A DNA stretch of 64,000 nt from positions 9,457 to 73,456 of the forward strand of contig JACQZY010000028.1 in NCBI GenBank assembly GCA_016213645.1, written 5' to 3'. This stretch comes from Actinomycetota bacterium. Lineage in GTDB: Bacteria; Actinomycetota; Thermoleophilia; Solirubrobacterales; JACPNS01. The notes under the pieces were generated by a model. The model made no database searches and was not told the DNA's origin. It was given only the letters and a program-made list of their open reading frames with translations. Position 1 is the stretch's first letter. The number at the start of each line of letters is the position of its first letter. The translations under genes were made by a program, and so were the position numbers. Positions 1,937 to 54,393 of this stretch are shown piece after piece.

Positions 1937-1948
<12 letters not shown>
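653..1948 (+). CDS. tyrosine-type site-specific recombinase / phage integrase
   Basis: 431 aa. The C-terminal catalytic domain carries Arg (GLRIGELLDL), HxxR (HSLRRTFAS) and the Tyr nucleophile context (LRVYAQL). The N-terminal part resembles a SAM-like core-binding region. The 3' end overlaps the tRNA. Confidence 0.9.
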
Positions 1949-8891: not shown

Positions 8892-12031
<3,140 letters not shown>

Positions 12032-12035
<4 letters not shown>

Positions 12036-13752: not shown

Positions 13753-13922
13753 ATTCCGCCGATTTCCGACTATTCCGCGACTGAAACGGCCATATATACG
13801 ACCGACCGGCGGAACCACGAGGGCGATGCAACGGTCAATTCGCGTGAACCTCAACCTGAGGTCGAGGCGAATCATGAAATTTCCCCTCACATGCGGGGCA
13901 AAACCTGCCTATCATTCCCGCC

Positions 13923-16720: not shown

Positions 16721-16769
16721 AGCGCTCGCAACGGCGGCTGCGCGAACGGCCGGCCCGAAAGACCCTGCG

Positions 16770-16854
16770 GTATAATGCTGTTTCAGCAAACCTCCTTTTG
16801 GACGGCCGCGCCAGCCGCAATTGGGAAGTGGGCCTTACGCCCACTTTTTTCTTT
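16770..16854 (+). promoter_or_regulatory. candidate promoter plus terminated leader upstream of rimP-nusA-infB
   Basis: Perfect TATAAT at 16770-16775 (no good -35). About 50 nt downstream lies an intrinsic terminator that ends just before the rimP Shine-Dalgarno GAAGGAGG. Confidence 0.45.
16826..16854 (+). terminator. intrinsic terminator-like hairpin in the rimP leader
   Basis: aaGTGGGC-cttac-GCCCACtt followed by TTTTTTCTTT. This is one of the very few U-tract hairpins in the window. Confidence 0.55.
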
Positions 16855-16871
16855 GAAGGAGGGCATACGGA

Positions 16872-17378
16872 GTGAATATGCCGGCGACAGTGATCGAACA
16901 GCTACAGAGCGACATCGAAAGCAGGCTCGCCGACGCGGAGCCCGGCGTCGAGCTGCTGCTTTGCGAGCTGAACCGCGGCACCCTGCGCCTGTTTATCGAT
17001 CATTCCGACGGCGTGGATCTGGACCTCTGCGAGCGCGTGACGCGCCATCTGCGCGCATTGCGCGAGACCTATTCGATCGAGGTCTCGTCTCCGGGACCCA
17101 AGCGCCCGCTCACCAAGCCCGATCATTTTCGCCGCTTCGTCGGCCGCCGCGCGAAGATTCGTACGCGCAGCGATCACGACGGGCGCCGCAGCTTCACCGG
17201 CGAGCTCATCGCCGCGGACGATTCAGGGGTGACGATCGGTGCGGACGGCACGATCGTCACCGTTACCTACGAAGACATCAGCAAGTCAAATCTCGTACCG
17301 GAGGTCGCCGGACCGGCGGACTCCGACCGACCCGGAGGGCGCGCGAAGGCCGCCAAGCCGGGAAAAACAACTAAATAG
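16872..17378 (+). CDS. rimP: ribosome maturation factor RimP
   Basis: 168 aa with LEVSSPG-like IEVSSPGPKRPL, directly upstream of nusA. The start could be GTG 16872 or ATG 16878. Confidence 0.9.
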   Translation: MNMPATVIEQLQSDIESRLADAEPGVELLLCELNRGTLRLFIDHSDGVDLDLCERVTRHLRALRETYSIEVSSPGPKRPLTKPDHFRRFVGRRAKIRTRSDHDGRRSFTGELIAADDSGVTIGADGTIVTVTYEDISKSNLVPEVAGPADSDRPGGRAKAAKPGKTTK

Positions 17379-17392
17379 GAGTTCCCAGAACA

Positions 17393-19015
17393 ATGTCTCA
17401 GGAAATCGTTGACGCAATCAAGCTGCTGGAACGCGAGAAGGGGATCGACGCGGAAACCCTTATGACCGCGCTCGAAGACGCGATGCTGTCGGCCTACAAA
17501 AAGTCCCCCGGGTCCGCGAAATACGCCCGTGTGGAGCTTGACCGCGAGAGCGCCGATTTCCGCGTGTACGAACTGCTCGTGCCTGAAGACCTGGAGGACG
17601 AACTGCTCGACGAGGTTTACGAGCAGGAGTCCACGATCGACCCCGAGACAGGCGAACGCCGCGTGATCGAGGAGCCCGACATTTCACCGGAAAAACTCGC
17701 CGAACACCGCGACAAGATCCCGGAGCGCGATGTCACGCCCGAGAACTTCGGCCGCATCGCGGCTCAGACCGCCAAGCAGGTGATCTATCAGCGCATACGC
17801 GAGGCCGAGCGCACGATGATGTACGACGAGTACCACGACCGTGTCGGCGAGCTGATCACGGGCATCGTGCAGCAGACGGACCACCGCTACACGCTGGTGC
17901 AGCTACGCGAACGCGTCGAGGCTCTGCTGCCCAAGAGCGAGCAGGTGCCGCGCGAGCGCTACGAGCACGGCGCCCGCATCAAAGCCGTGATCACCGACGT
18001 CTCGGCCGAAAGCAAGGGTCCAAGCATCGTCGTCAGCCGCCGCAACCCGGAGCTGATCCGCAAACTCTTCGAACTGGAAGTACCCGAGGTCGCCGACGGT
18101 CTGGTGGAGATCCAGAACGTCGCACGCGAGCCCGGCTTCCGCAGCAAGATCGCCGTTGTTTCGCACGCTGACGGGGTAGACCCGGTCGGTGCCTGCGTAG
18201 GACCGCGCGGTTCGCGCGTGCGCATGGTCGTCAGCGAACTGCGCGGCGAGAAGATCGACATCATTCCTTACAACGACGAACCCGCCCGCTTTGTCGCCAA
18301 GGCGCTGGCTCCGGCCCGCGTGCGCGAGGTGCTGGTGGACGACGAAAACCAGCAGGCCACGGTGATCGTGCCCGACGACCAGCTTTCGCTGGCGATCGGC
18401 CGCGAGGGACAGAACGCCCGTCTGGCCGCACGCCTGACCGGTTGGCGCATCGACATCCGCTCCGAGAGCGACTTCGCCGACGAGGATGCCGGCGAGATCG
18501 AGGGCGAAGAGGAGGAGTCCGCGGGCCGTTGTCACGCGATTCTCAGCAACGGCCGGCTCTGCCCGAACGCCGCTCTGTCCGGCAGTCGCTTTTGCGGCCT
18601 GCCCGCCCACCAGGAACTCGCCAACACGGGCAGCGACTACGTGGACCCGTCGATGGCCGGTCAGGAAGACATCGCATCCGAAGATGCCGGATCGGAAGCA
18701 CCGGCCATGGAAGCACCGGCCGAGGAAGCGCCCGTCGCCGACGACGACACCGATGTGGTCAGTCCCGACGAAGAGGCCGCCGGCGCCGTGTCCGACGAGA
18801 ACGTGATCGAGCAGGAAGCGATTCAGGAGGCCGTCGAAAACGCTCCGGTCGCGGATGAAGACACCGATCAGTTGGCCGATGCCGAGGCGCAGGCCGAATC
18901 GGCCGTCGCCGTCGCCGACGAAGGCGCCGCGTTCCCGGCCACGGAGGCCGAGGAAACCGAGCTTGAAGCCGCCGAAGATGCCGCCGGGGATGAATTCTCC
19001 GGCGAGGATGAGTAG
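17393..19015 (+). CDS. nusA: transcription termination/antitermination factor NusA with a long acidic C-terminal extension
   Basis: N-terminal domain, S1 and two KH domains ([23 protein letters not shown]). These are followed by a Cys/His motif and an Asp/Glu/Ala-rich tail of about 130 aa. Confidence 0.95.
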
Positions 19016-19031
19016 GGGGCTGCAGCCGCAG

Positions 19032-21746
<2,715 letters not shown>

Positions 21747-31018: not shown

Positions 31019-31693
31019 ATGAGTGCCGAGCAGATCAGGGTCGCGGTTTCGGGCGCCGCCGGCAAAATGGGCGCAAACGTCTGCTCCGCGGTTGAGGGCG
31101 CTGATGATCTGACGCTCACCGGGCGCGCCGATCCATCGCTTGGCACATCGCTTGACGACGTGCTTGCCGATGCCGATGTTGTCGTTGATTTCACACGGCC
31201 GGACACGGCTATTGACAACGCCCGCCGGATCGTCGAAGCGGGAGTGCATTGCGTGACCGGCACCACCGGCGTCGACTACGCGGAACTCGGCGGCGCGAGC
31301 GGTGACGGCAAGCTGTTCTTCGCGCCGAACTTCGCGATTGGCGCGGTGCTGTTGATGGAGATGTCCAAGCTTGCTGCGCCGCACATGCCGGAGTGCGAGA
31401 TCGTGGAGTTGCATCACCCCGCCAAGCTCGATGCGCCAAGCGGCACCGCCGTGCGTACGCGCGAGTTGATCGAAGGGGCGGGTGGCCGTGTGCACGACCC
31501 GATCCATTCGATTCGCCTGCCCGGCGTGATCGCCAGCCAGGAGGTCGTCTTCGGCCAGACCGGCCAGACCCTGAGCGTGCGCCACGAAACCTATTCGCGC
31601 GAATCGTTCATGCCCGGGGTGCTGTTGGCGGTGCGACGAGTCGCCGGTCTTGAGCAGCGCATCACGGTGGGGCTTGAGAAGCTGTTGTTTTAG
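31019..31693 (+). CDS. dapB: 4-hydroxy-tetrahydrodipicolinate reductase
   Basis: VAVSGAAGKMG nucleotide-binding N-terminus and ELHHPAKLDAPSGTA catalytic motif. Confidence 0.9.
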   Translation: MSAEQIRVAVSGAAGKMGANVCSAVEGADDLTLTGRADPSLGTSLDDVLADADVVVDFTRPDTAIDNARRIVEAGVHCVTGTTGVDYAELGGASGDGKLFFAPNFAIGAVLLMEMSKLAAPHMPECEIVELHHPAKLDAPSGTAVRTRELIEGAGGRVHDPIHSIRLPGVIASQEVVFGQTGQTLSVRHETYSRESFMPGVLLAVRRVAGLEQRITVGLEKLLF

Positions 31694-32223: not shown

Positions 32224-33627
32224 TCAGTTAAGTATGGCCGGTAGGTTGTAGCTTCGCACCTTCGGAATCACTCGCGCGGCGTCGAAGTTGAACCACTGAT
32301 CGAGAATTGCCCCATGCAGTGCGCGGAAGTCCATGCTGGGGCGCATGTTGTCGTCCTCGTCGAGCACGTCCACGCCCGTGAATTCGCCGAGTAGCTGACG
32401 GCGAACGCGACTGCCCATCACCATCGCCATGCCGGCGGCGCCGTGGTCGCAGCCGTTGGAGCCGTTCTCCTCGGGACGGCGGCCGAATTCGCTCCAGATG
32501 TGTACAAGCACACGATCGGCCAGTCCGCGGGCCTCAAGGTCTCGCTGAAAAGCCAGCAGGCAATCGGCGGCCGACTTGAGATCTTTGTCGAAGCTTTCTC
32601 GCTGTTGGTCGTGGGTGTCGTAGCCGCCCGCCGCGCGAATCGCGACGCAGCGCAAAGGCAACCCGATCGCGAGCATCGCGGCAACGAACTGCAACTGTTC
32701 GCCGAAGTCCTCGTCCTTGGGATAGGTCACGGGCGACGCAATACCCGGCGGCGCATTGTCCTCTTCGGTGGCAAACGGCAGAAGTTGGCGACGCAGCTTC
32801 ATCGACTGTGCCGAGGCGTCGGCCGCAGTGCGCAGTCCGTTGTCGCGACTGCCCTGTGATGCCTGCCCCATGCGCTCGATCGCGTCGATCATCGCTTCGT
32901 CCACCTCGCCCCAGACGTTGCGGTGGCCAAAGCGGTACGAGCGTGGGTTCGCCAGTGCGGCCACTGGAACCTTTGACGGCGCCAATGCTGGGGAGAGGCT
33001 GTAGTCCACCGATAATCCCTGCAATGGGTTGTCGGGCGCCCCGACGGCGTCGAGGTAACGTCCCAGCCAGCCGGTTTGCAGGCGAGGATCGGTGTCGCCG
33101 ACCTCCCAATAGTGGCGCGACGTGAAGTGCGACTGGTCGGCCGGTGTGTATCCGATCGAGGGCGCCACCGCGAGCTTGCCCTCTTCGTGCAGGATTCGCA
33201 AGCCGTCAGCGGCAGGGTTCCAGCGCAGACGGGTGTCGTCGCCAAACGGCGTTCCGATGTCCGGTGAAAGCGCGAGCGTGGGACGTAGCCTGCGGTAAGT
33301 GGCGTCCTCGACCGGCGCAAGCACGGACAGCGAATCCGCGCCGCCGTCCAAAAACACCGACACGAGCACCGGGTCGGGCGGTCCGGCCGCGGCCTGCGCG
33401 ATCGCGTCGCTCAGGCGAAGCGGGTTGTAGTTGAGTGCCCCGTAGAGCGTGAGCATGAACGCTCCGCCGCGCAGCAAAAACGAACGTCTCGACAGACCGC
33501 TGCCAGCGGGAAGGGGCATCCCGGGCTCGATCAGCGGCAGGCCGTTGCCCGCGCGGGCGGCGGCTTCGCGCAGCACTTGCGCACGAGTGAACTCTCGACA
33601 TGCCCGTGTGTGTATTTGTTCGCTCAT
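32224..33627 (-). CDS. DUF1501 family protein (Tat-exported, sulfatase/alkaline-phosphatase-like fold)
   Basis: Twin-arginine motif SRRSFLLRGG. Family-typical segments LDGGADSLSVLAP, GGYDTHDQQ and WSEFGRRPEENGSNGCDHG. Confidence 0.85.
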   Translation of the reverse strand: MSEQIHTRACREFTRAQVLREAAARAGNGLPLIEPGMPLPAGSGLSRRSFLLRGGAFMLTLYGALNYNPLRLSDAIAQAAAGPPDPVLVSVFLDGGADSLSVLAPVEDATYRRLRPTLALSPDIGTPFGDDTRLRWNPAADGLRILHEEGKLAVAPSIGYTPADQSHFTSRHYWEVGDTDPRLQTGWLGRYLDAVGAPDNPLQGLSVDYSLSPALAPSKVPVAALANPRSYRFGHRNVWGEVDEAMIDAIERMGQASQGSRDNGLRTAADASAQSMKLRRQLLPFATEEDNAPPGIASPVTYPKDEDFGEQLQFVAAMLAIGLPLRCVAIRAAGGYDTHDQQRESFDKDLKSAADCLLAFQRDLEARGLADRVLVHIWSEFGRRPEENGSNGCDHGAAGMAMVMGSRVRRQLLGEFTGVDVLDEDDNMRPSMDFRALHGAILDQWFNFDAARVIPKVRSYNLPAILN

Positions 33628-33648
33628 CCGGTCTTGTCCGATCTCGTC

Positions 33649-35049
33649 TCAGCAGGTCTGCATGTCCGGGCAGGCGGCGATCAAGCTGCGCAGGGCGTTC
33701 TGTCGCATCACCCGATAGGGAGCCTTTTTCCAATCGCGGTCGGCTTCGCTGTCGCAGCGCTGCGCGAATTCGTTCAACACGTTCAGCGTCGTCTTGCCGA
33801 TCGTCGGATTGCCCCAAAAGGCAAGTGCTGCCGCAACCGCGGCGTCGGGCGCTTCCGCGTTTTCGTAACGCGCAAGCGTGGGATCGTCGCCGGGATCGAG
33901 GATGTCCGGCTCCCAAGACTCGCGCGCCGCCAGCCAGCGGGCTCGGAAGGTGCCGGTGTCCAACCACGCGTCGTCGTCCCAACCTGCGACGTTTGGCGGA
34001 AAGAACAGCCGCTGACCCGTCAGCTCCGAGATCCACGTCCACGACTGCGTGGCGATACCGACCCCGCGCATTCGCAGCAAACCTGCGGAATGCACGATCG
34101 GAGGCTTGACCATGCGCGGACCCTGGTACATCGCGGGGTGCATCAAAATCGCCTGGATCACCGGTCCGCTTTTGAATCCGCTCTTGACGTAGAGGCGCTT
34201 GAGTCCTGACAGCGTGCGGCCCGAAACCGGTGTGGGGATGAAGTAACTCCACAGTTTCTTCACAAAGAAGTTGGGATGATCGCGGTGGTGTACGCACAGC
34301 CGACAGGTGTCGCGCCAGTCAAATCTGCCGCTCTGTTTAAAGATCCGCTTGCGGCCGTTGTCGTGCAACTTCGGATCGAAATGGAAGTTCTCGTAACCTT
34401 GATCGCCCCAACCGTTGGTCCAGCCGGTCAGCGCACGAGCCTGTTCGCGAACGTCGTGTTCGGTGTAGTGGGCACCGGCGCCGAGCGTAAACAGTTCCAT
34501 CACTTCGCGGCCGTAGTTCTCGTTTGGCGCGTCCTTGGTGTTTTCGTTGCCCGAAAGCCAGACGAGCGTGGCTGGATTGTGTGTGACTTCAAGAAGTAGT
34601 GACAAGAACGATCCGGTGGCAAGACGGCGAAACAACGCGTTCTGCTGGAGCATCAGCCGCTGGCTTCCAACGCCGTCATTCGAAGTGGCAAACCAGTCGT
34701 GCCAAACCAGCGTCATGCGTTCCTGCAAAGGATTGGTGGTGCGAACCATGCGGTCAAACCACCAGAGGTGATCGTGTCCCCACTGGTCATACGGCGTCAA
34801 CGGAGTGTTGTCTTCAAGCACCGGCGCGGGACCGACCAGCCGGGACTTGCCGCGCGGCTTCATCATCTGCCGCACGGCGCGTTTCAGGCCCATGCGCGCG
34901 AGCTTGTCGGCCTCGCCGGGGCGCGGGCCAAAGCCGGCGCGCCAGAGCAGTCGCTCGGCTTGAGCGTTGCCGAAATGACCACGGTATGTGGGAAGCGGAG
35001 AACTGCGGCGCGCCATCGTTTCCTCTGAGCTGCTGACGGACGGGGCCAC
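33649..35049 (-). CDS. DUF1800 family protein
   Basis: LLWRAGFGPRPGE, MTLVWHDWFATS and WLSGNENTKDAPNENYGREVMELFTLG are typical of DUF1800. It has the usual pairing, directly upstream of a DUF1501 gene (21-nt gap). Confidence 0.85.
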   Translation of the reverse strand: MAPSVSSSEETMARRSSPLPTYRGHFGNAQAERLLWRAGFGPRPGEADKLARMGLKRAVRQMMKPRGKSRLVGPAPVLEDNTPLTPYDQWGHDHLWWFDRMVRTTNPLQERMTLVWHDWFATSNDGVGSQRLMLQQNALFRRLATGSFLSLLLEVTHNPATLVWLSGNENTKDAPNENYGREVMELFTLGAGAHYTEHDVREQARALTGWTNGWGDQGYENFHFDPKLHDNGRKRIFKQSGRFDWRDTCRLCVHHRDHPNFFVKKLWSYFIPTPVSGRTLSGLKRLYVKSGFKSGPVIQAILMHPAMYQGPRMVKPPIVHSAGLLRMRGVGIATQSWTWISELTGQRLFFPPNVAGWDDDAWLDTGTFRARWLAARESWEPDILDPGDDPTLARYENAEAPDAAVAAALAFWGNPTIGKTTLNVLNEFAQRCDSEADRDWKKAPYRVMRQNALRSLIAACPDMQTC

Positions 35050-35120: not shown

Positions 35121-35489
35121 TCAGTCGGCGGTCTTGAAACGGATCGCTTGGCGGCGATCGTCGATCGAACATTCTTCGTCGGGCGCCAGTCCGTAGCGGG
35201 CCGCTACGGGGATCAGATCTTTGCGGCTGATGTGGCGCGGGTCCGGAGGCTTCCAGGTAACCAGCCAGATCACGCCGTCGTCCACGACCTGAGCGCGCAC
35301 TCGACCGAGAAACTCGTCGGCTTCGTCGATGCTCCGAACGAGCCGGACGATCATGTCCAGATCGCCCGAGCGCAACAGACTTCCGGCGATCAACGCCTTG
35401 GCCGCGCTTTTGAACTCCGCGCCGACGTCACCGGTCATACGCACGCGCATCCCGTGCCGTAGGCCAAGTTTTTCGATCGTCGCTCGCAC
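35121..35489 (-). CDS. DUF3052-like small protein
   Basis: 122 aa. The pattern KLGL..G..V......G...........D.IV.........L......DGVIWLVTWK matches what I recall of DUF3052. Confidence 0.6.
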   Translation of the reverse strand: MRATIEKLGLRHGMRVRMTGDVGAEFKSAAKALIAGSLLRSGDLDMIVRLVRSIDEADEFLGRVRAQVVDDGVIWLVTWKPPDPRHISRKDLIPVAARYGLAPDEECSIDDRRQAIRFKTAD

Positions 35490-35550
35490 TGTCGTGTTGA
35501 TACTAGGCGGCGCGGCGTGTTCCTACCCGCCGATGCGTATCCTCTCTGGC

Positions 35551-36411
35551 ATGACCGACCTGGGAGCGATACTTACCGCGATCATCACGCCGTTCGACGC
35601 GGACGGCCGCGTGAGCGAAGACGCGTTTGTGCGGATCCTTCATCACCTCGCCGAAAACGGCAGCGACGGGGCGGTCGTTGCCGGGACCACCGGCGAAGCG
35701 GCAACTCTTACCGACGAAGAACACCTCGCCCTGATCGGATTGGCCGTGCGCGAGGCGCCGGACGATTTCACGATCGTCGGAGGCACCGGTTCGAACGACA
35801 CTCGTCACGCGGTCCACCTGACCGAGCGTGCCACGGAACTCGGCGTGGACGCCACACTCTCGGTGACGCCCTATTACAACCGGCCAAACCGCCGCGGAAT
35901 CATCGCCCATTTCGGCGAGGTCGCGCGCGCAACCGACAAGCCGATCGTTCTCTACAACATTCCCGGCCGAACCGGCGTTGACATGCCCAATGATTTGCTC
36001 GCGGAGTTGGCGCAACTACCGAACGTGGAGGCCGTCAAGCAGGCTAATCCTGAGAATCTCGCGCTCGTTGACGGGCTGCAGCTTTATGCCGGCGACGATC
36101 CGTTGCTGCGCGACACGCTCGCGCTTGGCGGCGCGGGCGGCGTGACCGTGGCCAGTCATGTGGTCGGCCCGCAGATGAAGGCCATGTGCGAGCAGCCGGA
36201 CCGCCGCGATGCCATTCACGACGAACTTTCCGACGTCTTCGAGGCGCTGTCCGTGACCGTTAATCCGATCCCGGTCAAGACGGCTATGAACATGCTCGGA
36301 TTTGACGCCGGCGGATTTCGCCTGCCACTCGTCGAGGCTTCCGAGGATGAAGCGGCGGCGGTGCGCGGCATGCTTGAGCGTCACAACCTTTTGACGACGG
36401 CGGCGAGTTGA
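35551..36411 (+). CDS. dapA: 4-hydroxy-tetrahydrodipicolinate synthase
   Basis: ITPF, VAGTTGEAATL, TPYYNRP, YNIPGRTG and the Schiff-base Lys context VEAVKQA. Start ATG 35551 (or ATG 35533). The 35329 extension overlaps the divergent gene. Confidence 0.9.
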   Translation: MTDLGAILTAIITPFDADGRVSEDAFVRILHHLAENGSDGAVVAGTTGEAATLTDEEHLALIGLAVREAPDDFTIVGGTGSNDTRHAVHLTERATELGVDATLSVTPYYNRPNRRGIIAHFGEVARATDKPIVLYNIPGRTGVDMPNDLLAELAQLPNVEAVKQANPENLALVDGLQLYAGDDPLLRDTLALGGAGGVTVASHVVGPQMKAMCEQPDRRDAIHDELSDVFEALSVTVNPIPVKTAMNMLGFDAGGFRLPLVEASEDEAAAVRGMLERHNLLTTAAS

Positions 36412-46082: not shown

Positions 46083-47069
46083 ATGGCCGAGCCGGTCATC
46101 GCCATATTCGGTCCGACGGGCATCGGCAAGACGTCGGTGGCGATCGAACTGGCAGGACTGTTGCGCAATCGCGGAGAGGACCCGATTGCCATATCCGTCG
46201 ATTCAATGCAGGTCTACCGAGAGTTGCCGATCATCACCGGCGCACCAACGGCACTGGAGCAAACGCGTCTGGAACACCGGCTGGTCGGAAGCATTTCGGT
46301 TGCCGATTCCTATGACGTGGCCACTCACGCGGCCGCCTGTCACGTGGAGATCGACGGCGCATTGAGCGAGGGGCGACGGCCGCTGGTCGTGGGGGGAACG
46401 GGGTTGTATCTTCGCGCCGCTCTGACGGATCTCGATTTCGTGCCGCCACCGGATCCGTCGGTCCGTGAGCGTTTGATGACCGAACTCGCTCAAGACGGCT
46501 TGGAGCAGCTTTATGCACGTCTGGCCGACGAGGAACCGGACGTGGCCGCGACGATCAATTCCGGCGACGCGCGCCGCGTCGTCCGTGCTTTGGAGGCGAT
46601 TGAGCAGGGTCGTTCCACGGCCGACCGCGAAAGAAACCGTCTTTGGACCGGCGACGTGCGGCGGCCGACGCGGCTTTTTGCTCTGGTGGTGGATCGGGAG
46701 ATCTTGTACGAGCGCATCGAGGCGCGCGTTGACGAAATGATCGAGCTGGGGGCGATCTACGAGGTCGAATCCGCCGCGCAAATCGCGGGACGCACGGCCG
46801 CCCAGGCCTTGGGCTTTGACGAGTTGCTCGCCGGTGACATCGAGTCGCTGAAGATGAACACGCGGCGATACGCCAAACGCCAGCTGACGTGGCTGCGAAA
46901 GCTTGCCGGCGCCGAACTGGTTGACGTCACCGACCTGTCCGCCGCGGAAACTGCCGCACGAATACTGGCCGCGTTGGATACCGACGGACCCGCGGCCGAC
47001 GAATCCGGTTCAGAGCGTCGGCACGGCCTCGAACACGGGGGCGGCCTCGGCGCATCGTTCACCGGTTAG
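46083..47069 (+). CDS. miaA: tRNA dimethylallyltransferase
   Basis: P-loop GPTGIGKTS, MQVYRELPIITGAP and GGTGLYLRA. Confidence 0.9.
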   Translation: MAEPVIAIFGPTGIGKTSVAIELAGLLRNRGEDPIAISVDSMQVYRELPIITGAPTALEQTRLEHRLVGSISVADSYDVATHAAACHVEIDGALSEGRRPLVVGGTGLYLRAALTDLDFVPPPDPSVRERLMTELAQDGLEQLYARLADEEPDVAATINSGDARRVVRALEAIEQGRSTADRERNRLWTGDVRRPTRLFALVVDREILYERIEARVDEMIELGAIYEVESAAQIAGRTAAQALGFDELLAGDIESLKMNTRRYAKRQLTWLRKLAGAELVDVTDLSAAETAARILAALDTDGPAADESGSERRHGLEHGGGLGASFTG

Positions 47070-47081
47070 AATCGCGCGCCG

Positions 47082-47933
47082 ATGCGGTTCGAAAAATGGC
47101 AGGCGCTTGGCAATGACTACATGATCGTCGAACCCGACGATCTGCCGTTCGAGCTGACCGCCAAACGCATCGAAAAGATCTGCCGGTACCACTTCGGCGC
47201 GGGCGCCGACGGCATACTGCTGATCGAGCGCAGCGACGACGCGGAAATCGTCGCGAACGTACGCATTTTCAATCCGGACGGTTCCGAGGCCGAGCTTTCC
47301 GGCAACGGAATCCGCGAAGCGATCATGTACCTGAGACGCACCGGGCGCGCCGACGGTGACGAGTTCGCCGTGAGCACGGCCGCCGGCGTGATCCGTCCCA
47401 AAATCGTCTCTGGTACCGAGTGCGAGGTTGACATGGGGGCCGCGTCGGTCACGTCGAAGGATTTTCCTGACGGCCCTCCGGACGGCCGTGCGCACATAGT
47501 CGTCGGCTTTACAGAGCTTGAGTTTCAGCATGTTTCGATCGGCAACCCGCAGTGCGCGATCGAAATTCCCGGCGATCCGCGCGACCTGGAGGCGTTGAAC
47601 CTCGGTCGTATTGGTCCGGGGCTGGAGACCGACCATCGCTTTCCCAATCGCACGAACGTCTCGTTCTGGCAGCGCACCGGCGAGCAAAGCATCACGGCGC
47701 GGATATTTGAGCGCGGAGTGGGGGAAACCCTGTCCTCCGGCACCGGGGCCACGGGCGCCGCTGTCGCCGCGTTCGTGCGCGGCATGAAGAGTCCGGTCAC
47801 CGTCACGCTCGACGGAGGCGAACTGCTCGTGGAAATCGACGAAGACCTGAACATCAAACTTACGGGCTGGGCGAAGCCGGTTTTCACCGGCGAACTGGCC
47901 CCGGAATTCATCACCGAACTGGAGAACACCTAG
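47082..47933 (+). CDS. dapF: diaminopimelate epimerase homologue with both catalytic Cys replaced by Ser
   Basis: Full-length DapF-like sequence (ALGNDYMIV, IFNPDGSE, GNPQCAI, FPNRTNVSF, ERGVGET) in the miaA-dapF-hflX syntenic slot. The catalytic positions read AELSGNG (Ser73, TCC 47298-47300) and ETLSSGTG (Ser219, TCC 47736-47738). Confidence 0.85.
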   Translation: MRFEKWQALGNDYMIVEPDDLPFELTAKRIEKICRYHFGAGADGILLIERSDDAEIVANVRIFNPDGSEAELSGNGIREAIMYLRRTGRADGDEFAVSTAAGVIRPKIVSGTECEVDMGAASVTSKDFPDGPPDGRAHIVVGFTELEFQHVSIGNPQCAIEIPGDPRDLEALNLGRIGPGLETDHRFPNRTNVSFWQRTGEQSITARIFERGVGETLSSGTGATGAAVAAFVRGMKSPVTVTLDGGELLVEIDEDLNIKLTGWAKPVFTGELAPEFITELENT

Positions 47934-49103
47934 ATGCAGCCCAGCAAGCGCCTTGAGCGCATTCCGCCCTACCTTTTCGCCGAGCTCGAAAAGAAGATCG
48001 CCGACAAAAAGGCGGCGGGCATCGACGTCATCTCGCTTGGCATCGGCGACCCGGACACGCCTACTCCGGCCAACGTGGTTGAGGCCGGGCAGCGAGCGCT
48101 TGCCGACCCCGGCACCCACCAATACCCATCAAACCGCGGCCGCGAAGAATTTCGCCGCGCGATCGCCGATTTCTACGCCCGGCGCTTCGGCGTCTCGCTC
48201 GACCCCGAGACCGAAGTGATGCCCGCGATCGGCGCCAAGGAATGCATCTTCAATCTCAACCTTGCCTTTCTCGACCCGGGCGACGTGGCTCTGGCTTCGG
48301 ACCCCGGTTACCCCGTTTACACCGGCGGACCGTTGCTTGTCGGTGCCGAGCCGGTGTTGCTGCCACTCCTGCCCGAACGCCAATTCACGCCGGACCTCGG
48401 CGCGATTCCGGCCGACAAACTGGCGAAGGCGAAGTTGACCTTTCTCAACTATCCGAACAACCCGACGGGGGCGATCGTGCCGGACGGCTTTTTCGCGGAA
48501 GTCGTTGAGTTCGCCAAGGCCAACGATCTGCTTGTCGTTCACGACGCGTCTTACACGGAGACCGCGTACGACGGTTACCGTCCGCCGAGCTTTTTGGAGA
48601 CCCCGGGCGCGAAGGACGTGGGCGTAGAGGTGTTTTCGCTCAGCAAGGGTTACAACATGACCGGTTGGCGCGCCGCCGCGATCGTCGGCAACGCCGAGGC
48701 CATTGCCACATACTGGCGACTGAAGACGAACATCGACTCAGGCAACTTCGAGGCCGTGCAGTTGGCCGCGGTGGAGGCGCTCAGCCCTGCTACCGACGCC
48801 GCCGTCGAGCAGATGAACGCGATCTACCAGCGACGGCGCGATCTCGTGTGTGACGCGCTCGCTGAAATAGGCGTGAACGTTTCGCGACCGAAGGCGACGA
48901 TCTACATCTGGGCGCCAGTGCCCGCCGGCTTTGAAAGCGCGGCGGCGTACTGCGCGCACGTGCTTGAGGAGTCGGCGGTGGTGATTTCGCCAGGCGGCGC
49001 TTACGGCGCAAGCGGCGAAGGCTTTTTCCGCATATCGCTGACCACGCCGGACGAACGGCTGACCGAGGCCGTCGATCGGCTGCGCTCCACGCTCGCGAAG
49101 TAA
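47934..49103 (+). CDS. dapL: LL-diaminopimelate aminotransferase-like class I/II aminotransferase
   Basis: N-terminus RLERIPPYLFAELEKKIADKKAAGIDVISLGIGDPDTPTP and PLP-lysine motif FSLSKGYNMTGWR. Starts immediately after the dapF stop. Confidence 0.75.
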   Translation: MQPSKRLERIPPYLFAELEKKIADKKAAGIDVISLGIGDPDTPTPANVVEAGQRALADPGTHQYPSNRGREEFRRAIADFYARRFGVSLDPETEVMPAIGAKECIFNLNLAFLDPGDVALASDPGYPVYTGGPLLVGAEPVLLPLLPERQFTPDLGAIPADKLAKAKLTFLNYPNNPTGAIVPDGFFAEVVEFAKANDLLVVHDASYTETAYDGYRPPSFLETPGAKDVGVEVFSLSKGYNMTGWRAAAIVGNAEAIATYWRLKTNIDSGNFEAVQLAAVEALSPATDAAVEQMNAIYQRRRDLVCDALAEIGVNVSRPKATIYIWAPVPAGFESAAAYCAHVLEESAVVISPGGAYGASGEGFFRISLTTPDERLTEAVDRLRSTLAK

Positions 49104-49159: not shown

Positions 49160-50494
49160 GTGCAACGCGATCAAAGGGACGACCGCCCGGGCGGCAAAGG
49201 AAAGCCGCAGCGCGAGAGCCGCTACGGCGAGGGAATTCGCAATCCGCGGGCACGTCAGCGCGCGCTTTGCATCGCCTCCGGTCGCGACGAAGTGGACTTG
49301 GCCGAGTTGCGCGAGCTGTTGCGTACAGCCGGGGTCGCGGTAGCGGGGGAGATGATCCAGGCGCGCGACGCACCCGACGCCAACAGCTACTTCGGCAGCG
49401 GCAAGCTGGAAGAGCTTAAGCAAGAGGCGAAACGATGCAATGCCAACGTGATTGCTTGCGACGACGAGCTGACACCGCGACAGGAGCGAAATCTTGAACA
49501 AGCGGTCGGCATGTCGGTGGTAGACCGAACCGAAATCATTCTCGACATCTTCGCCGGCCACGCTCGCAGCGCCGAGGGCAAGTTGCAGGTCGAGCTCGCA
49601 CAGCTTGAGTACAACCTGTCGCGCATGCGCGGCCTCTGGACCCACCTCGAACGCCTCGGTGCCGGGATCGGTACGCGTGGGCCGGGCGAGTCGCAGATCG
49701 AGACCGACCGTCGCCTCGCGCGCGACCGCATCACCGCGCTTCGCCGCCGGCTTGCCGGCGTGCGCAATTCCCGCGAAACGCAGCGGCGCGAACGCGAGCG
49801 CAAAAGCATTGCCACCGCCGCGCTGGCCGGCTACACAAACGCCGGAAAGTCCAGCTTGCTCAATGCAATGACCGGCTCCGAGGTAACCGTGCGCGACCGG
49901 CTTTTCGAAACGCTTGACCCGACTACACGCACGATGGAAGTGGACGGGCGAGACGTACTGGTCACGGACACCGTCGGTTTCATCCGCAAGCTTCCTCACC
50001 AACTGGTAGACGCGTTCGCCTCCACACTTGAAGAGGCTTTGTCCGCCGAGCTGGTACTGCACGTCGTTGACGCTTCGATGGAAGAGGACGACCTCGGCGA
50101 GATGATTACCGCAGTCGATGACGTGCTCGCCGAGGTCGGCGTGGTCGAGCAGGACTCCCAGCTCGTGCTCAACAAGATTGACCTTGTTGATGCGGAGCGA
50201 CTTCAGGAATTGCGTTACCGCCATCCGGAGGCGTTGCTCGTATCGGCGGTCACGGGTGAAGGGCTGGACGAACTACGCGCCACGATCGCGCAAAGGCTTG
50301 CCGCGCGCCTGGTCCCGGTGAGCCTGCTCGTGCCGTACTCCCGCGGTGAACTTCTTGACACGCTCCACCGGCAGGCCGCCGAGCTGACTCGCGAGGACCG
50401 GCCCGACGGGGTGCTTGTGAGCGCGAAGCTGCGACGACCGCTGGCCGAGCGGCTCAGTGAGTTTGCCGTCGACGGCGCGACGGCCACGGTGTAG
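49160..50494 (+). CDS. hflX: GTPase HflX
   Basis: HflX N-domain (YFGSGKLEELK), coiled linker and G-domain motifs GYTNAGKSSL, DTVGF and NKID. The GTG start is uncertain. Confidence 0.9.
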   Translation: MQRDQRDDRPGGKGKPQRESRYGEGIRNPRARQRALCIASGRDEVDLAELRELLRTAGVAVAGEMIQARDAPDANSYFGSGKLEELKQEAKRCNANVIACDDELTPRQERNLEQAVGMSVVDRTEIILDIFAGHARSAEGKLQVELAQLEYNLSRMRGLWTHLERLGAGIGTRGPGESQIETDRRLARDRITALRRRLAGVRNSRETQRRERERKSIATAALAGYTNAGKSSLLNAMTGSEVTVRDRLFETLDPTTRTMEVDGRDVLVTDTVGFIRKLPHQLVDAFASTLEEALSAELVLHVVDASMEEDDLGEMITAVDDVLAEVGVVEQDSQLVLNKIDLVDAERLQELRYRHPEALLVSAVTGEGLDELRATIAQRLAARLVPVSLLVPYSRGELLDTLHRQAAELTREDRPDGVLVSAKLRRPLAERLSEFAVDGATATV

Positions 50495-50530: not shown

Positions 50531-50998
50531 ATGGAAGCGCACGCAATCACCCGTCCGGAAGTCGAATCAACTTTGCGCTTCAAAAAGCTCCACCCCGACG
50601 CGGTCGTACCCACGCGGGCTCATGACGGCGACGCCGGCTGCGACATCTACGCTCGCGAATCGCTGACCCTCCGCCCGGGGGAGCGCGGGCGTGTGGGAAC
50701 CGGCATTGCCGTGGCGATTCCGGAAGGTCATGCGGGCATGGTTCTGCCACGCTCCGGACTGGCCCATAAACACGGCGTCACACTGACGAACTCACCCGGT
50801 CTGATCGACGCCGGTTACCGCGGAGAGCTGATGGTGCTGCTGGTAAACACGGACCGTGACGATGCGTACACGGTGAACCCGGGCGATCGCATCGCACAGC
50901 TCGTGCTGGTGCCGTTCAGTGCGCCGAACTGGACAGAGGTTGAAGACTTCGAAGACACAACCCGGGGCGAAGGCGGCTTCGGGTCAAGCGGTTTTTAG
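50531..50998 (+). CDS. dut: dUTP diphosphatase
   Basis: DAGCDIYA, PRSGLA, GLIDAGYRGEL and a C-terminal RGEGGFGSSG motif. Confidence 0.9.
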   Translation: MEAHAITRPEVESTLRFKKLHPDAVVPTRAHDGDAGCDIYARESLTLRPGERGRVGTGIAVAIPEGHAGMVLPRSGLAHKHGVTLTNSPGLIDAGYRGELMVLLVNTDRDDAYTVNPGDRIAQLVLVPFSAPNWTEVEDFEDTTRGEGGFGSSGF

Positions 50999-51003
50999 GA
51001 CCC

Positions 51004-51074
51004 GGCCCAGCGTCCGGCCCAGCGTCCGGCCCAGCGTCCGACCCAGCGTCCGACCCAGCGTCCGGCCCAGCGCC
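51004..51074. repeat. 12-nt tandem repeat (about 6 copies) between convergent genes
   Basis: ggcccagcgtcc x3, gacccagcgtcc x2 and ggcccagcgcc, read directly. It fills nearly the whole dut-antiporter spacer. Confidence 0.9.
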
Positions 51075-51080
51075 GGTGGA

Positions 51081-52259
51081 TCACCTGCGTCGCCGCGCCG
51101 CCGATTTGAGCATGTAGGGAGCGATCAGCGTGGTCAAAACAGCCATGCCCACGACTACGGCAAATAGCTCATCGCGAATCACGCCCTCCGAAAAGCCGAT
51201 TCCTGCGACGATGATGCCAACCTCGCCGCGCGGCACCATTCCCGCCGCCACGATTGCGCGATCCCGACGGTCCAGCCCGATCGACCCGATCCAGGCGCCG
51301 GCGTACTTCGTGACCACGGCGAGCAGCGTTACACCACCCAGCAGCAACAGCGTGTCTCCGTCGGTAAAGCTCGAAATGTCAACCTGCACGCCGATCGCGG
51401 TGAAGAAAAACGGCGCAAAAAAAGCGTAAATCGGGGCGACCTCTGATTCGATCGAGTTGTGGTCGCGGGTCTCGGCGATCACCATGCCGGCGAGAAACGC
51501 ACCGATCACGGCGGCCAGACCGATTTCCGCCGACAGCACCGCAAGACCAAGGCAGATGATCACCGCCGGCATCAACGGCGAATCCGCAAAGCGCGGAACT
51601 TCGAGCAACTTTGGCCACCGGCGAAAGACGCGCGATCCGCCAAGGGAGACGAAGACCAGAAACGGCACGGCCAGAGCAAAAAGTATTCCGACGTCGCCCA
51701 GATCCACCGACCCGCCCGTCGCGATCCCCGTCGCCATCGCCAGCACGATCAGCGCGAGAATGTCGTCGATCACCGCGGCGCCAAGGATCGTGCGCGCGGC
51801 GCGGCCGCTCTGAAGTTTGAGATCCATCAGCAGGGCGGACGTGATGCCTACGCTCGTTGCGGCGAGTGCCGCGCCGATGAAAACGGCCGTGGCGGTGGAT
51901 GCGCCAAAAACCAGCGCCAGCAGCACGCCCGAGCCGGCCGGCAGCACCACTCCCACCACGCCCACAAGTGCCGCCGAACGCCCGACCGATGCGATCTGGC
52001 TGATTTTCGTCTCCAGTCCAACCCAGAACAACAAGAAGATCACGCCCAGTTCCGCGAACACCTCAACGACGTTGTTCAGCTCAACCAGTCCCAGCACCGA
52101 CGGACCAACGATCACGCCGGCAAGGATCTCACCCGCTACGACCGGCTGGTGCAAATGGCGGCAGATTTCTTCGCCGATTTTCGCCGCAAGCAGGAGCAAA
52201 AACAACGCCGTCAGATAACCGGACAGATCGCCATGCACGGCGGCAAAGGGGATGCTCAT
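51081..52259 (-). CDS. cation:proton antiporter (CPA family, Na+/H+ exchanger-like)
   Basis: 392 aa, about 11-12 hydrophobic helices, with a family-typical N-terminus (LLLLAAKIGEEICRHLHQPVVAGEILAGVIVGPSVLG). Confidence 0.85.
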   Translation of the reverse strand: MSIPFAAVHGDLSGYLTALFLLLLAAKIGEEICRHLHQPVVAGEILAGVIVGPSVLGLVELNNVVEVFAELGVIFLLFWVGLETKISQIASVGRSAALVGVVGVVLPAGSGVLLALVFGASTATAVFIGAALAATSVGITSALLMDLKLQSGRAARTILGAAVIDDILALIVLAMATGIATGGSVDLGDVGILFALAVPFLVFVSLGGSRVFRRWPKLLEVPRFADSPLMPAVIICLGLAVLSAEIGLAAVIGAFLAGMVIAETRDHNSIESEVAPIYAFFAPFFFTAIGVQVDISSFTDGDTLLLLGGVTLLAVVTKYAGAWIGSIGLDRRDRAIVAAGMVPRGEVGIIVAGIGFSEGVIRDELFAVVVGMAVLTTLIAPYMLKSAARRRR

Positions 52260-53011
52260 CGCCGGCTCCGTCGCCCCGCATCTAGCGCGCAGCGATGCGC
52301 GGCGTCTTCGAGCACGTCGTCAAGCGGTTTGAGTTCCACAGGCGTGCCGTCGCGAGCCAGCGCCAGCGCGGTCAAGTAATCGGCGAACCAGGCGTTCTTG
52401 GGCAGCAGCGGACCGTGCAGATAGGTGCCAAACACGTTCTTGTGACGGACGCCCTCGAAGTGGTCGGATCCATTGTTGCCGAACCCGGAGATCACGCTGC
52501 CAAGCGGGCTTTCGCCTTCGCCGAGGTAGGTTCGTCCGCCGTGATTTTCGAAACCGGCGAGGCGCTGCGGCTTGCCCTCGATCTCGAGTTCGATCACGAC
52601 GTTTCCGATTAGGCGCGGTCCGGGCTCGCGTACGGTCTTCAGCGAAACGATCGACAGCCCCTCGATTACTTGGTCGGCAAGCTCGTAGGACTCGCCCAGC
52701 AGTTGATATCCGCCGCAGACGGCGAGCATCACTTTCCCGTCCTCCGCCGCTCGCGCCAATGCGTCGCGCTTCGTGCGCAGCATGTCCTGGGCGATCTGGA
52801 CCTGATCGCGATCCTGACCGCCGCCGATGTAAAAGAGGTCGAACGCCCCGGGATCGATCGAATCGCCATGCTCCGCCGCCGAAAGTTCAAAACCGATGCC
52901 GCGCGCCGCGCAGCGGCGTTCGAGCAGGATCATATTTCCGCGGTCGGCGTAGATGTTCATCCGCGAGGGGTAAAGCGCGCAGACGCGCAGAATGTCGCCC
53001 ATGCCGCTCAC
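52256..53011 (-). CDS. gatD: lipid II isoglutaminyl synthase glutaminase subunit GatD (CobB/CobQ-like amidotransferase)
   Basis: LYPSRMNIYADRGN, catalytic AVCGGYQLLG and YLHGP. GTGA overlap with murT. Confidence 0.85.
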   Translation of the reverse strand: MSGMGDILRVCALYPSRMNIYADRGNMILLERRCAARGIGFELSAAEHGDSIDPGAFDLFYIGGGQDRDQVQIAQDMLRTKRDALARAAEDGKVMLAVCGGYQLLGESYELADQVIEGLSIVSLKTVREPGPRLIGNVVIELEIEGKPQRLAGFENHGGRTYLGEGESPLGSVISGFGNNGSDHFEGVRHKNVFGTYLHGPLLPKNAWFADYLTALALARDGTPVELKPLDDVLEDAAHRCALDAGRRSRR

Positions 53012-54393
53012 TTGCTCCAGTATGCGGGTGCTTCGCCGCGCTTGGCGATTGCGGTGCGCAAGTCAAGCAGCGAGGTGTAGGTGGGCAGGGCGAAGACCGG
53101 GTTGCCGTCAGCGGCGGCCGCCGCGACGGCGGAGTCAAACGACTGCTCGATGCGGTCGTCCACGACGATGTCGTGCCGGTCCACTCCGGCGTAGGCAAGC
53201 CGCAGGGCCATCTCCGGCGCGCGGGTACCCGAGCAGGTAACCCGGTTCACTCGTCCCGCCAGCTCCTCGAAGTCCGCGTCCCACACCCACGAAACGTCGC
53301 GTCCGTCGGCGATCTTGTCGTTGAGCGCGATCCACAGATCGAATCGCTCGTCCTGAGCAGCGATCGTGCGCAGAACCTCATTTGCGCCGGTCGGGTTTTT
53401 GATCAGCAGTAGAGCCACTTCATGTCCGCTCACGCTGATCGACTCGACGCGGCCGAAAACGGCGCGAGCCTCCCGAAGACCGCCGGAGATCGCCGTCTTC
53501 GGCAGTTCCAGCGCGCAGGCCGCCGCGGTCGCGGCAACCGCGTTGTAAACGTTGTAAAGACCGGGAATCGGCAGTTCGATCGCGATACTTCCACCCGGTG
53601 AGTCAATCGTGATCGCCGAGCCCGACATGCCGTTCATTTGAATGTTCGACGCATAGACGCTGGGACGCGGGCGTTGCGCTCCGCAGCTCACGCATTGGTA
53701 GTGACCGAGATGCCCAAGCAGAACGGCGTCATAGCTGAGCGGAGCGCCGCACTGGCGGCAGAATTTGGAGTCGGCGGCATGGCGGGGGGAGGATTCGGCG
53801 TAGGCGCGGTCCTCGATGCCGAAGTAGATGACGTTTTGGCGATCTCCGGCGAGCTGCGCGAGCAATGGGTCGTCGGCGTTGAGAACCACGGTCGTCGCGG
53901 CAGGCAGGGAGGCGATCATGCCTGCCCAAGAATCTGCGAGCGTTTCCAGCTCGCCGTAGCGGTCGAGCTGGTCGCGAAAAAGATTCGCCAGCATGATTAC
54001 CCGCGGCTGCAACCTGCCGACCAAATCCGCCACCCAGGCCTCGTCCACTTCAAACAGACCGATGTCGCCGGTCAGCGTGCCATGTCGCGTCGCCGAGAGC
54101 AACGAACTGGCGATGCCGCCGGGCATATTGGCACCGGCGTGGTTGTGAACCGGTTCCAGATCCGCTTCGCGAAGGATGCTCGAAAGCAGCGAAGCGGTGG
54201 TCGTTTTGCCGTTGGTCGCGGAGATTACGACCGTGCCATTTTCCAGCGGAGACACCAGCCGCTCGATCGCGTCGTCCTGCATCGAGAGCAGGAGCTTGCC
54301 CGGCAGCGAGGTGCCACCGCCGCGGCCCGCCGCTCGAATCAGCGATCCGGCGCCGCGCGCAACCGCGAGTTTGAGAGGTGAGACCTGTGACAT
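53008..54393 (-). CDS. murT: lipid II isoglutaminyl synthase ligase subunit MurT (Mur ligase family + DUF1727)
   Basis: ATNGKTTT P-loop, Cys4 ribbon CRQCGAPL...YQCVSCG and a C-terminal DUF1727-like region. Confidence 0.9.
   Translation of the reverse strand: MSQVSPLKLAVARGAGSLIRAAGRGGGTSLPGKLLLSMQDDAIERLVSPLENGTVVISATNGKTTTASLLSSILREADLEPVHNHAGANMPGGIASSLLSATRHGTLTGDIGLFEVDEAWVADLVGRLQPRVIMLANLFRDQLDRYGELETLADSWAGMIASLPAATTVVLNADDPLLAQLAGDRQNVIYFGIEDRAYAESSPRHAADSKFCRQCGAPLSYDAVLLGHLGHYQCVSCGAQRPRPSVYASNIQMNGMSGSAITIDSPGGSIAIELPIPGLYNVYNAVAATAAACALELPKTAISGGLREARAVFGRVESISVSGHEVALLLIKNPTGANEVLRTIAAQDERFDLWIALNDKIADGRDVSWVWDADFEELAGRVNRVTCSGTRAPEMALRLAYAGVDRHDIVVDDRIEQSFDSAVAAAAADGNPVFALPTYTSLLDLRTAIAKRGEAPAYWSK

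Follow-up and report, generated by a model that had tools for sequence, protein, structure and literature searches.

A 64,000-nucleotide stretch of DNA from an Actinomycetota bacterium (assembly GCA_016213645.1, contig JACQZY010000028.1; this whole stretch is hereafter the window) encodes a natural variant of diaminopimelate epimerase, DapF, in which both catalytic cysteines are replaced by serine. The gene occupies 47082..47933 (+), and its 283-aa product additionally carries glutamine in place of the histidine of the GNPH motif, making it a Ser/Ser/Gln variant. Based on the comparative evidence below, we consider the protein, on balance, to be probably a working LL-diaminopimelate (LL-DAP) epimerase that would use a pair of serine hydroxyls. 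DapF is the textbook example of a racemase that works without a cofactor, taking an α-proton with a pKa of ~29 by means of a weak thiolate base. The variant is not a new family; it is a natural and widespread departure from the feature that defines the DapF mechanism. Source annotations name all of these proteins diaminopimelate epimerase and leave the missing active-site residues unflagged. In reviews and recent structural work, the cysteine pair is regarded as indispensable or universal, and inhibitor design with aziridino-DAP and other cysteine-alkylating compounds is aimed at it (PMC8142540, PMC12039745). A full-text literature search, outside which lay subscription-only papers such as the original C73S/C217S kinetics, returned no report of a native Ser/Ser DapF.

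A DapF Protein without Catalytic Cysteines

Family profiles and structure prediction both place the protein in DapF. The DapF equivalog profile TIGR00652 matches residues 1-272 over profile positions 1-268 of 270, with 197.7 bits against a cutoff of 114.65, and PF01678 matches twice, once per domain (141.8 bits, cutoff 34.7). These matches bear out a preliminary description of this DNA, which had aligned the product with DapF from end to end. The profile for the bifunctional chlamydial DapF/glutamate racemase, NF038284, gave only 63.1 bits against its cutoff of 350. The AlphaFold2 model (predicted local distance difference test score 90.1, predicted template modeling (TM) score 0.87) has the two-domain fold of DapF. 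In this model, the predicted helices 74-86 and 220-232 begin right after Ser73 and Ser219, and this placement at the helix N-termini is the geometry of the DapF catalytic residues. Foldseek searches against the PDB returned DapF or the DapF-like O-ureidoserine racemase for all of the top 26 matches; the best are DapF crystal structures, with TM scores of 0.80-0.87 (around 0.85). The protein agrees with DapF in family profile, fold, DAP-contact residues, and pathway context with positional equivalence. It departs from DapF in the catalytic cysteine pair and in the pair formed by the GNPH histidine and the glutamate of the ERG motif, of which the histidine is lost and the glutamate is kept as Glu210 (Glu208 in Haemophilus influenzae).

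The catalytic positions were assigned from phmmer alignments to five solved DapF structures, those of Arabidopsis thaliana (3ejx), Acinetobacter baumannii (5ha4), a cyanobacterium (9mro), Bacillus anthracis (2otn), and H. influenzae (2q9j). All five alignments are ungapped around both motifs. Ser73 (codon TCC, 47298..47300, +), in ..DGSEAELSGNG.., pairs with the first catalytic cysteine, Cys73 of the H. influenzae and Escherichia coli enzymes. Ser219 (codon TCC, 47736..47738, +), in ..ERGVGETLSSGTG.., pairs with the second, Cys217 of H. influenzae DapF. Codons and structure-based alignments thus agree with the initial observation that both catalytic cysteines are encoded as serine. That observation came with a list of the only cysteines in the protein, C33, C113, and C158. 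The last is correct and none lies at a catalytic position, but the first two are C34 and C114. The third change had gone unmentioned: codon CAG at 47550..47552 (+) encodes Gln157 of the sequence GNPQC at the position of the GNPH histidine (H. influenzae His159). With serine at both catalytic positions, the window protein cannot use the thiol/thiolate mechanism.

Lineage-Wide Conservation of the Serine Pair

The serine pair is not peculiar to one genome. The homologue set comprised the 120 closest proteins in a 5.8-billion-protein collection, at 62-100% identity, and all 120 are Ser/Ser with an invariant DGSEAELSGNG motif. Their labels are Solirubrobacterales, Thermoleophilaceae, or Actinobacteria metagenome-assembled genomes (MAGs), and we refer to this lineage as clade (a). 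When a single genome for each GTDB species was scanned with the motifs NPDGSEAE and GET[LM]SSGTG, Ser/Ser dapF turned up in at least 589 of them, from Solirubrobacterales and Thermoleophilaceae, including the closed MAG chromosomes OY969702.1, OY969103.1, OY969802.1, and OY969817.1. Whether the serine pair is lineage-wide, a question raised at the outset, is therefore answered in the affirmative. Eighty of these genomes were examined, covering Solirubrobacterales, Solirubrobacteraceae, Conexibacter, Solirubrobacter, Capillimicrobium, and Thermoleophilaceae MAGs. Since the 80 loci were retrieved by the motifs of dapF itself, its presence in 80 of 80 is uninformative about genomes that have lost the gene. 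Across 78 species-level loci, the serines at the two sites are written with the codons TCG, TCC, TCA, TCT, AGC, and AGT, and Gln157 with CAG or CAA. The use of six synonymous codons at the catalytic sites excludes sequencing error and indicates that serine itself is under selection.

An artifact was a natural concern because each change from cysteine to serine takes a single base, and the preliminary description itself had named a read error and a misaligned indel as ways in which its claim could fail. A sequencing or assembly error in which TGC was twice read as TCC is ruled out by the 120 homologues, the at least 589 genomes, and the six serine codons. Misalignment hiding a true cysteine is ruled out by the ungapped alignments to five solved structures. 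We regard this explanation as refuted and its residual probability as negligible.

Pairwise dN/dS (nonsynonymous to synonymous rate ratio) of dapF has a median of 0.28 and a range of 0.10-0.50, and it is below 1 in every one of 89 pairs, indicating that dapF is under purifying selection. Mean identity to the 80 relatives is 59.9% for DapF, compared with 48.8% for MiaA, 62.2% for HflX, and 59.2% for Dut. The conservation of DapF is within the range of the neighboring housekeeping genes.

Remodeling of the Active-Site Pocket

The pocket was compared in a joint alignment of four sets: 119 clade (a) sequences, 111 sequences of a second Ser/Ser clade from other phyla, clade (b), 120 Cys/Cys sequences from Thermoleophilia, and 32 other Cys/Cys representatives. 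A small third Ser/Ser group, group (c), includes Acidobacteriota. We take N11, N64, G74, N75, N157, N190, E208, R209, G218, and S/T219 to be the DAP contacts of the H. influenzae enzyme, from its structures and PMC5885031. In window numbering, N11, N64, G74, N75, N155, N192, E210, R211, G220, and T/S221 are 100% conserved in all four sets. G44, which is also counted as a DAP contact, is 100% conserved in clades (a) and (b) (119 and 111 sequences, respectively) and in 120 Cys/Cys sequences. The substrate contacts, first judged intact by eye, are intact at every one of these positions.

The serines are as strictly kept as the contacts. Position 73 is serine throughout clade (a) (119/119) and clade (b) (111/111), and position 219 is likewise invariant. 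A protein that only bound DAP would be expected to tolerate alanine, glycine, or threonine here, so invariant serine speaks against mere binding. Three further positions differ between the serine and cysteine forms. Position 194 is glutamate, facing the active site, in 100% of Cys/Cys Thermoleophilia and 87% of other Cys/Cys sequences; it is serine in 100% of clade (a) (Ser194 of RTNVSF, 47661..47663, +, in the window protein) and glutamine in 100% of clade (b). Position 8 is glycine in 100% and 84% of the two Cys/Cys sets, respectively, and alanine in 100% of clade (a) and 85% of clade (b). Position 13, occupied by phenylalanine, histidine, or tyrosine in Cys/Cys DapF, is tyrosine in 100% of clade (a) and 99% of clade (b) (Tyr13 of the GNDY motif, codon TAC, 47118..47120, +), and group (c) has Phe13. 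All three positions change in both large Ser/Ser clades, which are as far from one another as from Cys/Cys DapF. Each clade also has fixed residues of its own. Clade (a) fixes Gln157 (119/119), Cys114, and His150, and clade (b) fixes Lys72 and Tyr215 beside the two serines. The GNPH histidine is kept in clade (b) and in all Cys/Cys sets. Together, these patterns point to an active site that is remodeled, not decayed.

The residues fixed in clade (a) raise the question of whether the catalytic function has moved. Cys114 (47421-47423), His150 (47529-47531), or Tyr13 could transfer the proton while the serines only hydrogen-bond the substrate. Cys114 and His150 are invariant in clade (a), where other DapF sets have valine and alanine, glutamate, or cysteine, respectively, and Tyr13 is fixed in both large Ser/Ser clades. 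However, clade (b) is Ser/Ser with V114 and A150, group (c) is Ser/Ser with Phe13, and position 114 is not listed among the residues lining the active site in PMC5885031. We consider such a relocation very improbable.

Loss of catalysis deserves more weight, though it too appears unlikely. The protein could be a pseudoenzyme or DAP sensor that binds LL- or meso-DAP without epimerizing it and has a regulatory or scaffolding role. In that case, meso-DAP would come from an enzyme elsewhere in the genome, such as a second DapF, a meso-DAP dehydrogenase (Ddh), or a pyridoxal phosphate-dependent racemase. Three of the four residues regarded as catalytic (Cys73, Cys217, and His159) are changed, a sensor would need the fully conserved binding residues as well, and E. 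coli DapF partners RppH non-catalytically (PDB 6d13). Against this, the relaxed constraint expected of a dead pseudoenzyme was not seen, given the invariant serines, the fully conserved pocket, and the dN/dS range reported above. Serine is never replaced by alanine, glycine, or threonine at either site in several deep clades.

Genomic Context and the Route to meso-DAP

The gene sits in a housekeeping region. The window carries pyr genes, coaBC, nusA-infB, truB, ribF, pnp, dapB, dapA, rnj, ftsK, cinA, recA, miaB, and miaA, followed by dapF, dapL, hflX, and dut, and then GatD and MurT on the opposite strand. The upstream neighbor that defines the slot, miaA (46083..47069, +), matches TIGR00174 with 177.5 bits (cutoff 148.65). 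Directly downstream lies a gene for a DapL-type LL-diaminopimelate aminotransferase (47934..49103, +; NF006756, 543.8 bits, cutoff 507), whose ATG abuts the TAG stop codon of dapF when the junction is read. It is followed by hflX (49160..50494, +; TIGR03156, 426 bits, cutoff 216.75). These profile matches confirm the miaA-dapF-hflX slot, with dapL beside it, that had been proposed for the gene. Most of the 80 species genomes that were examined preserve the order miaA-dapF(Ser/Ser)-dapL-hflX.

Earlier steps of the pathway are encoded upstream. The 4-hydroxy-tetrahydrodipicolinate reductase gene dapB lies at 31019..31693 (+) and matches TIGR00036 with 173.7 bits (cutoff 122). The synthase gene dapA lies at 35329..36411 (+) and matches TIGR00674 over residues 81-350 with 267.5 bits (cutoff 206.15). 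As listed, the dapA ORF has ~80 surplus N-terminal residues ahead of the TIGR00674 region; since these are unmatched, translation probably begins further inside the ORF. At 224 aa, the dapB ORF is short, and its match begins at profile position 71, with the N-terminal nucleotide-binding part compressed or divergent.

The product of DapL is LL-DAP, so a conversion from LL to meso is required if the cell wall contains meso-DAP. The Conexibacter woesei genome paper gives meso-DAP as the diagnostic position-3 peptidoglycan amino acid in all Solirubrobacterales (PMC3035278), and meso-DAP has also been found in Solirubrobacter (PMC10722151). This leaves two options: thiol-free epimerization by this enzyme, or a different source of meso-DAP in these bacteria. 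Alternative routes were sought in the 64-kb window and in flanks of up to 10 kb. A tblastn search of the window with the protein matched only itself, with the next match at E = 0.46. No Ddh was present among the ~45 window ORFs scanned with NCBIfam or Pfam, a scan outside which lay small ORFs and the last 1.8 kb. The only DAP-route genes besides dapF among the scanned ORFs were dapA, dapB, and dapL. A window that holds these three genes and shows neither a second dapF nor a ddh argues against the sensor role. So does the persistence of the gene ahead of dapL, at the ancestral position of dapF, in the 80 genomes examined.

Cysteine Counterparts in Thermoleophilia

Relatives with cysteine were found among the 150 best 50%-identity cluster representatives, which were searched for catalytic residues. 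Sixty-four are Ser/Ser and 35 are Cys/Cys, the remainder being mostly fragments or frameshifted calls. The nearest Cys/Cys representatives include a Thermoleophilia-labelled protein, P0266. In Gaiellales, one protein (P0212) is Ser/Cys, and others are Ser/Ser with the histidine kept. P0266 and two further Cys/Cys proteins, P0481 and P0539 (MAGs GCA_020636905.1, GCA_034663595.1, and GCA_050246675.1), occupy the slot ftsK-cinA-recA-miaB-miaA-dapF. Since these three genes, read in context, share the miaA slot, they are counterparts in other lineages and not extra copies. Positional comparison therefore indicates that the same slot in one class holds Cys/Cys/His, Ser/Cys/His, Ser/Ser/His, and Ser/Ser/Gln forms, which look like a series of successive replacements. 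The Cys/Cys Thermoleophilia DapF proteins share the chromosomal slot of the window gene but are Cys/Cys/His with Glu194 and only 35-42% identical to the window protein. The neighboring genes at these loci are 57-67% identical to those of the window, except MiaA at 38%.

A search seeded with P0266 returned Cys/Cys/His in all of its best 120 matches. Among the named ones, the labels are Thermoleophilia, Thermoleophilales, Miltoncostaeaceae, or Actinomycetota only, with no Solirubrobacterales. These best 120 matches suggest, as weak negative evidence, that Solirubrobacterales do not hold a second, Cys/Cys dapF to supply meso-DAP in place of a non-catalytic protein.

The genes around dapF also differ within the class. 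In the Cys/Cys loci L006 and L007, the gene after dapF encodes an aminotransferase 64-65% identical to the window DapL; dut, GatD, and MurT come next in L007. The Cys/Cys dapF of L003 is followed (10872-14297) by dapD, dapC, and dapE of the succinylase route instead of dapL. The Gaiellales Ser/Cys gene lies in the order dapE-dapF-dapL-hflX (L005), a locus in which dapE and the aminotransferase gene occur together. Thermoleophilia thus vary in the DAP route itself. Outside this class, DapL is reported as the sole route in Verrucomicrobium spinosum, which has a dapF (VspiD_010100011375); its genome yielded no counterparts of ddh or of the acyl pathways, and the methods of that study describe assaying Ddh on crude extract (PMC3390587).

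Serine Pairs in Other Phyla

Clade (b) comprises proteins from Chloroflexota, Verrucomicrobiota, and Planctomycetota with the pattern AEKSGNGLR...ASGSS...GNPH and labels that include Chloroflexota, Anaerolineae, Prosthecobacter, Opitutus, and Planctomycetota; one member is the Prosthecobacter protein WP_322282702.1. In 119 sequences, serine is present at every catalytic motif that could be found, at both in 88 and at one in 31. Like the window protein, clade (b) has the serine pair, Tyr13, all DAP contacts, and a TIGR00652 match above cutoff, and it has lost Glu194. It differs in keeping the GNPH histidine and in having Lys72 and Tyr215. Identity between the Ser/Ser groups is 36-40% (~37% between clades (a) and (b)), as distant as from Cys/Cys DapF. 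In bootstrapped neighbor-joining with the catalytic and co-varying columns masked, all Ser/Ser sequences grouped together in 3/100 replicates, and clade (a), Gaiellales, and clade (b) did so in 4/100. The deep nodes are unresolved in these trees, and independent origins of the serine pair are therefore likely, not proven.

Clade (b) also links the serine form to the use of meso-DAP. In clusters less than 50% identical to one another, the Ser/Ser domain is joined to the C-terminus of LysA. The LysA part of the fusions matches TIGR01048 with 409.8 and 360.3 bits (cutoff 297.9), and fusions were verified on DNA as single genes in one ENA contig and one NCBI MAG. LysA consumes meso-DAP, and its fusion to a protein unrelated to meso-DAP supply would be hard to reconcile; this too counts against a sensor that does not epimerize. 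Other fusions in clade (b) join Ser/Ser DapF to GGACT (gamma-glutamyl cyclotransferase-like) or GNAT acetyltransferase domains (P0200, P0336, and P0404), and one of these proteins is labelled Planctomycetota.

Proposed Mechanism and Its Alternatives

In the mechanism that we favor, the gene would be the lineage's own dapF, serving the step from LL-DAP to meso-DAP between DapL and MurE/LysA. The thiol/thiolate pair would be exchanged for two serine hydroxyls, and the two-base 1,1-proton transfer of DapF would be kept. One serine would act as an alkoxide base and the other as a hydroxyl acid, and the helix dipoles, together with the main-chain amides of Gly74/Asn75 and Gly220/Thr221, would stabilize the oxyanion. 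The pocket would have been re-tuned around the serine pair through the changes of Glu194 to serine, His157 to glutamine, Gly8 to alanine, and Phe/His13 to tyrosine. Loss of the nearby Glu194 carboxylate, and of His157 in clade (a), would adjust the electrostatics. At neutral pH, an alkoxide is rarer than a thiolate but a far stronger base, better matched to the pKa of the α-C-H bond, and this higher basicity would make up for its scarcity. Turnover may be modest, and a modest rate would be enough. E. coli dapF mutants remain viable. LL-DAP accumulates in such mutants (PMC6254735), and the DapF of Mycobacterium tuberculosis has a kcat of only 0.1465 per second, with turnover across species spanning orders of magnitude (PMC8142540). 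The low kcat and the behavior of the E. coli mutants indicate that a slow enzyme can suffice.

A benefit can be proposed on a speculative basis. A disulfide that joins the two catalytic cysteines can inactivate Cys/Cys DapF, as in the oxidized Corynebacterium glutamicum enzyme (PDB 5h2g). A serine pair would be immune to oxidative disulfide inactivation and to thiol alkylation, which might suit life in dry, UV-exposed soils. A passage in PMC10722151 describes Solirubrobacter as abundant in desert and high-UV soils.

The protein can be set against several known systems. Canonical DapF (EC 5.1.1.7; H. influenzae 1gqz/2gke, A. thaliana 3ejx, and Anabaena 9mro) has the same length, pseudo-symmetric two-domain fold, DAP contacts, ERG glutamate, catalytic residues at two helix N-termini, and place in the DAP/lysine pathway. 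The window protein differs from it in Ser/Ser, glutamine for the GNPH histidine, Ser194, Ala8, and Tyr13. The H. influenzae C73S and C217S variants (PDB 2q9h and 2q9j), both among the sequence and structure matches, have serine at a catalytic position. However, they are single laboratory substitutions in a thiol-tuned pocket, whereas the window protein is a natural double replacement, with co-varying pocket changes, that selection has maintained. Members of the proline-racemase superfamily with serine or threonine presumably have one catalytic cysteine replaced and an altered reaction type, and belong to other subfamilies. The E. coli aspartate/glutamate racemase EcL-DER is a Thr/Cys two-base racemase that works irreversibly from L to D (PMC8142540). 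Like the window protein, it is a natural cofactor-independent two-base enzyme in which a hydroxyl residue replaces a catalytic cysteine, but it has another fold, only one cysteine replaced, and an altered direction. A hydroxyl residue in a two-base racemase has, in EcL-DER, a precedent at a single site. For the natural replacement of both cysteines by serine, no documented case was found in the literature searched.

These precedents also allow that the chemistry or substrate has changed. The protein could catalyze another reaction, with DAP or a similar compound as substrate, or act in one direction only, from LL to meso. Replacement of one cysteine changes reaction type or direction in related superfamilies, as in EcL-DER (PMC8142540), C114 and H150 are invariant specifically in clade (a), DapF shows extra divergence across the boundary between the serine and cysteine forms (see below), and the GGACT and GNAT fusions of clade (b) suggest some functional diversity. 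We nevertheless consider altered chemistry improbable. The residues that recognize the proximal and distal ends of DAP are both unchanged, and a dehydratase-type reaction would need a beta leaving group, which DAP lacks. Moreover, the operon partner DapL makes the substrate, and the fusion partner LysA consumes the product, of ordinary epimerization.

Several points weigh against a working serine-based epimerase. Clade (a) has lost the GNPH histidine, which, like Glu208, is called essential for epimerase activity in PMC5885031. By published accounts, single Cys-to-Ser substitutions engineered into DapF and related racemases hinder or slow catalysis and serve to trap the open form; for DapF, HisR, and CntK, no more than slowing is described (PMC12039745, PMC11602996). 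These mutants also favor a pseudoenzyme. Across the boundary between Ser/Ser and Cys/Cys forms, DapF identity is 42%, compared with 65% for DapL, 64% for MiaB, 67% for RecA, and 57% for Dut. This excess divergence of DapF fits adaptive remodeling, but it also fits a changed function or a foreign gene having taken the place of the original. E. coli DapF additionally activates RppH, a role that does not involve catalysis, and a non-enzymatic role could in principle likewise keep the gene.

Simple loss of function is nonetheless weighed against by the invariant serines and contacts, the dN/dS values, the conserved slot, the Ser/Cys form, the LysA fusions, and the presence of meso-DAP. The preliminary description had offered a pseudoenzyme, altered chemistry, and epimerization elsewhere as readings. 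Its identification of a DapF counterpart with a serine pair and intact contacts stands, and the comparative evidence has weakened the pseudoenzyme and the relocation of epimerization to another enzyme.

For native Ser/Ser DapF proteins as a whole, we see an even chance that they are fully functional amino-acid epimerases, free of thiols and cofactors, whose oxygen-based two-base mechanism arose more than once. If so, origins would lie in Thermoleophilia, via a Ser/Cys stage, in Chloroflexota, and in a Planctomycetota-Verrucomicrobiota group, and the DAP pathway of widespread soil and sediment bacteria would be resistant to oxidation and to cysteine-directed DapF inhibitors. A naturally selected serine form would be a ready-made system for asking whether hydroxyls can do DapF chemistry and which second-shell changes allow it. 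It would also raise the matter of selective advantage, most obviously a hypothetical gain in redox robustness. Should the protein prove inactive, the meso-DAP of an entire bacterial order would come from a route not yet recognized, with consequences for pathway reconstruction.

Other Features of the Window

Near the DAP genes, a GatD/MurT pair (lipid II isoglutaminyl synthase) lies at 52256-54393 (-). It scores 183 bits with NF045636 and 275 bits with NF045635, both under the equivalog cutoffs. Synteny of the pair extends to L003 and L007, two Cys/Cys loci of Thermoleophilia, and suggests amidated stem peptides in this class. A 12-bp tandem repeat (consensus CCGGCCCAGCGT) at 51002-51076, with 6.3 copies and 95% matches, spans the gap from the end of dut (50998) to the 3' end of a CPA2 antiporter gene (51081, minus strand). 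One reading frame through the repeat is the (RPSV)n ORF listed at 50919-51167. Between dapB and dapA, a pair of genes for DUF1501 (467 aa) and DUF1800 (466 aa) proteins occupies 32224-35049 (-). The AT skew is 0.20 at 16001-20000, the nusA and infB region, and mostly ≤0.12 elsewhere in the window. At the left window edge, a phage-integrase-family protein (PF00589, E = 3.5e-21) is encoded at 653-1948 (+), preceded by a 210-aa ORF without a family match, and this integrase may mark the edge of an integrated element.

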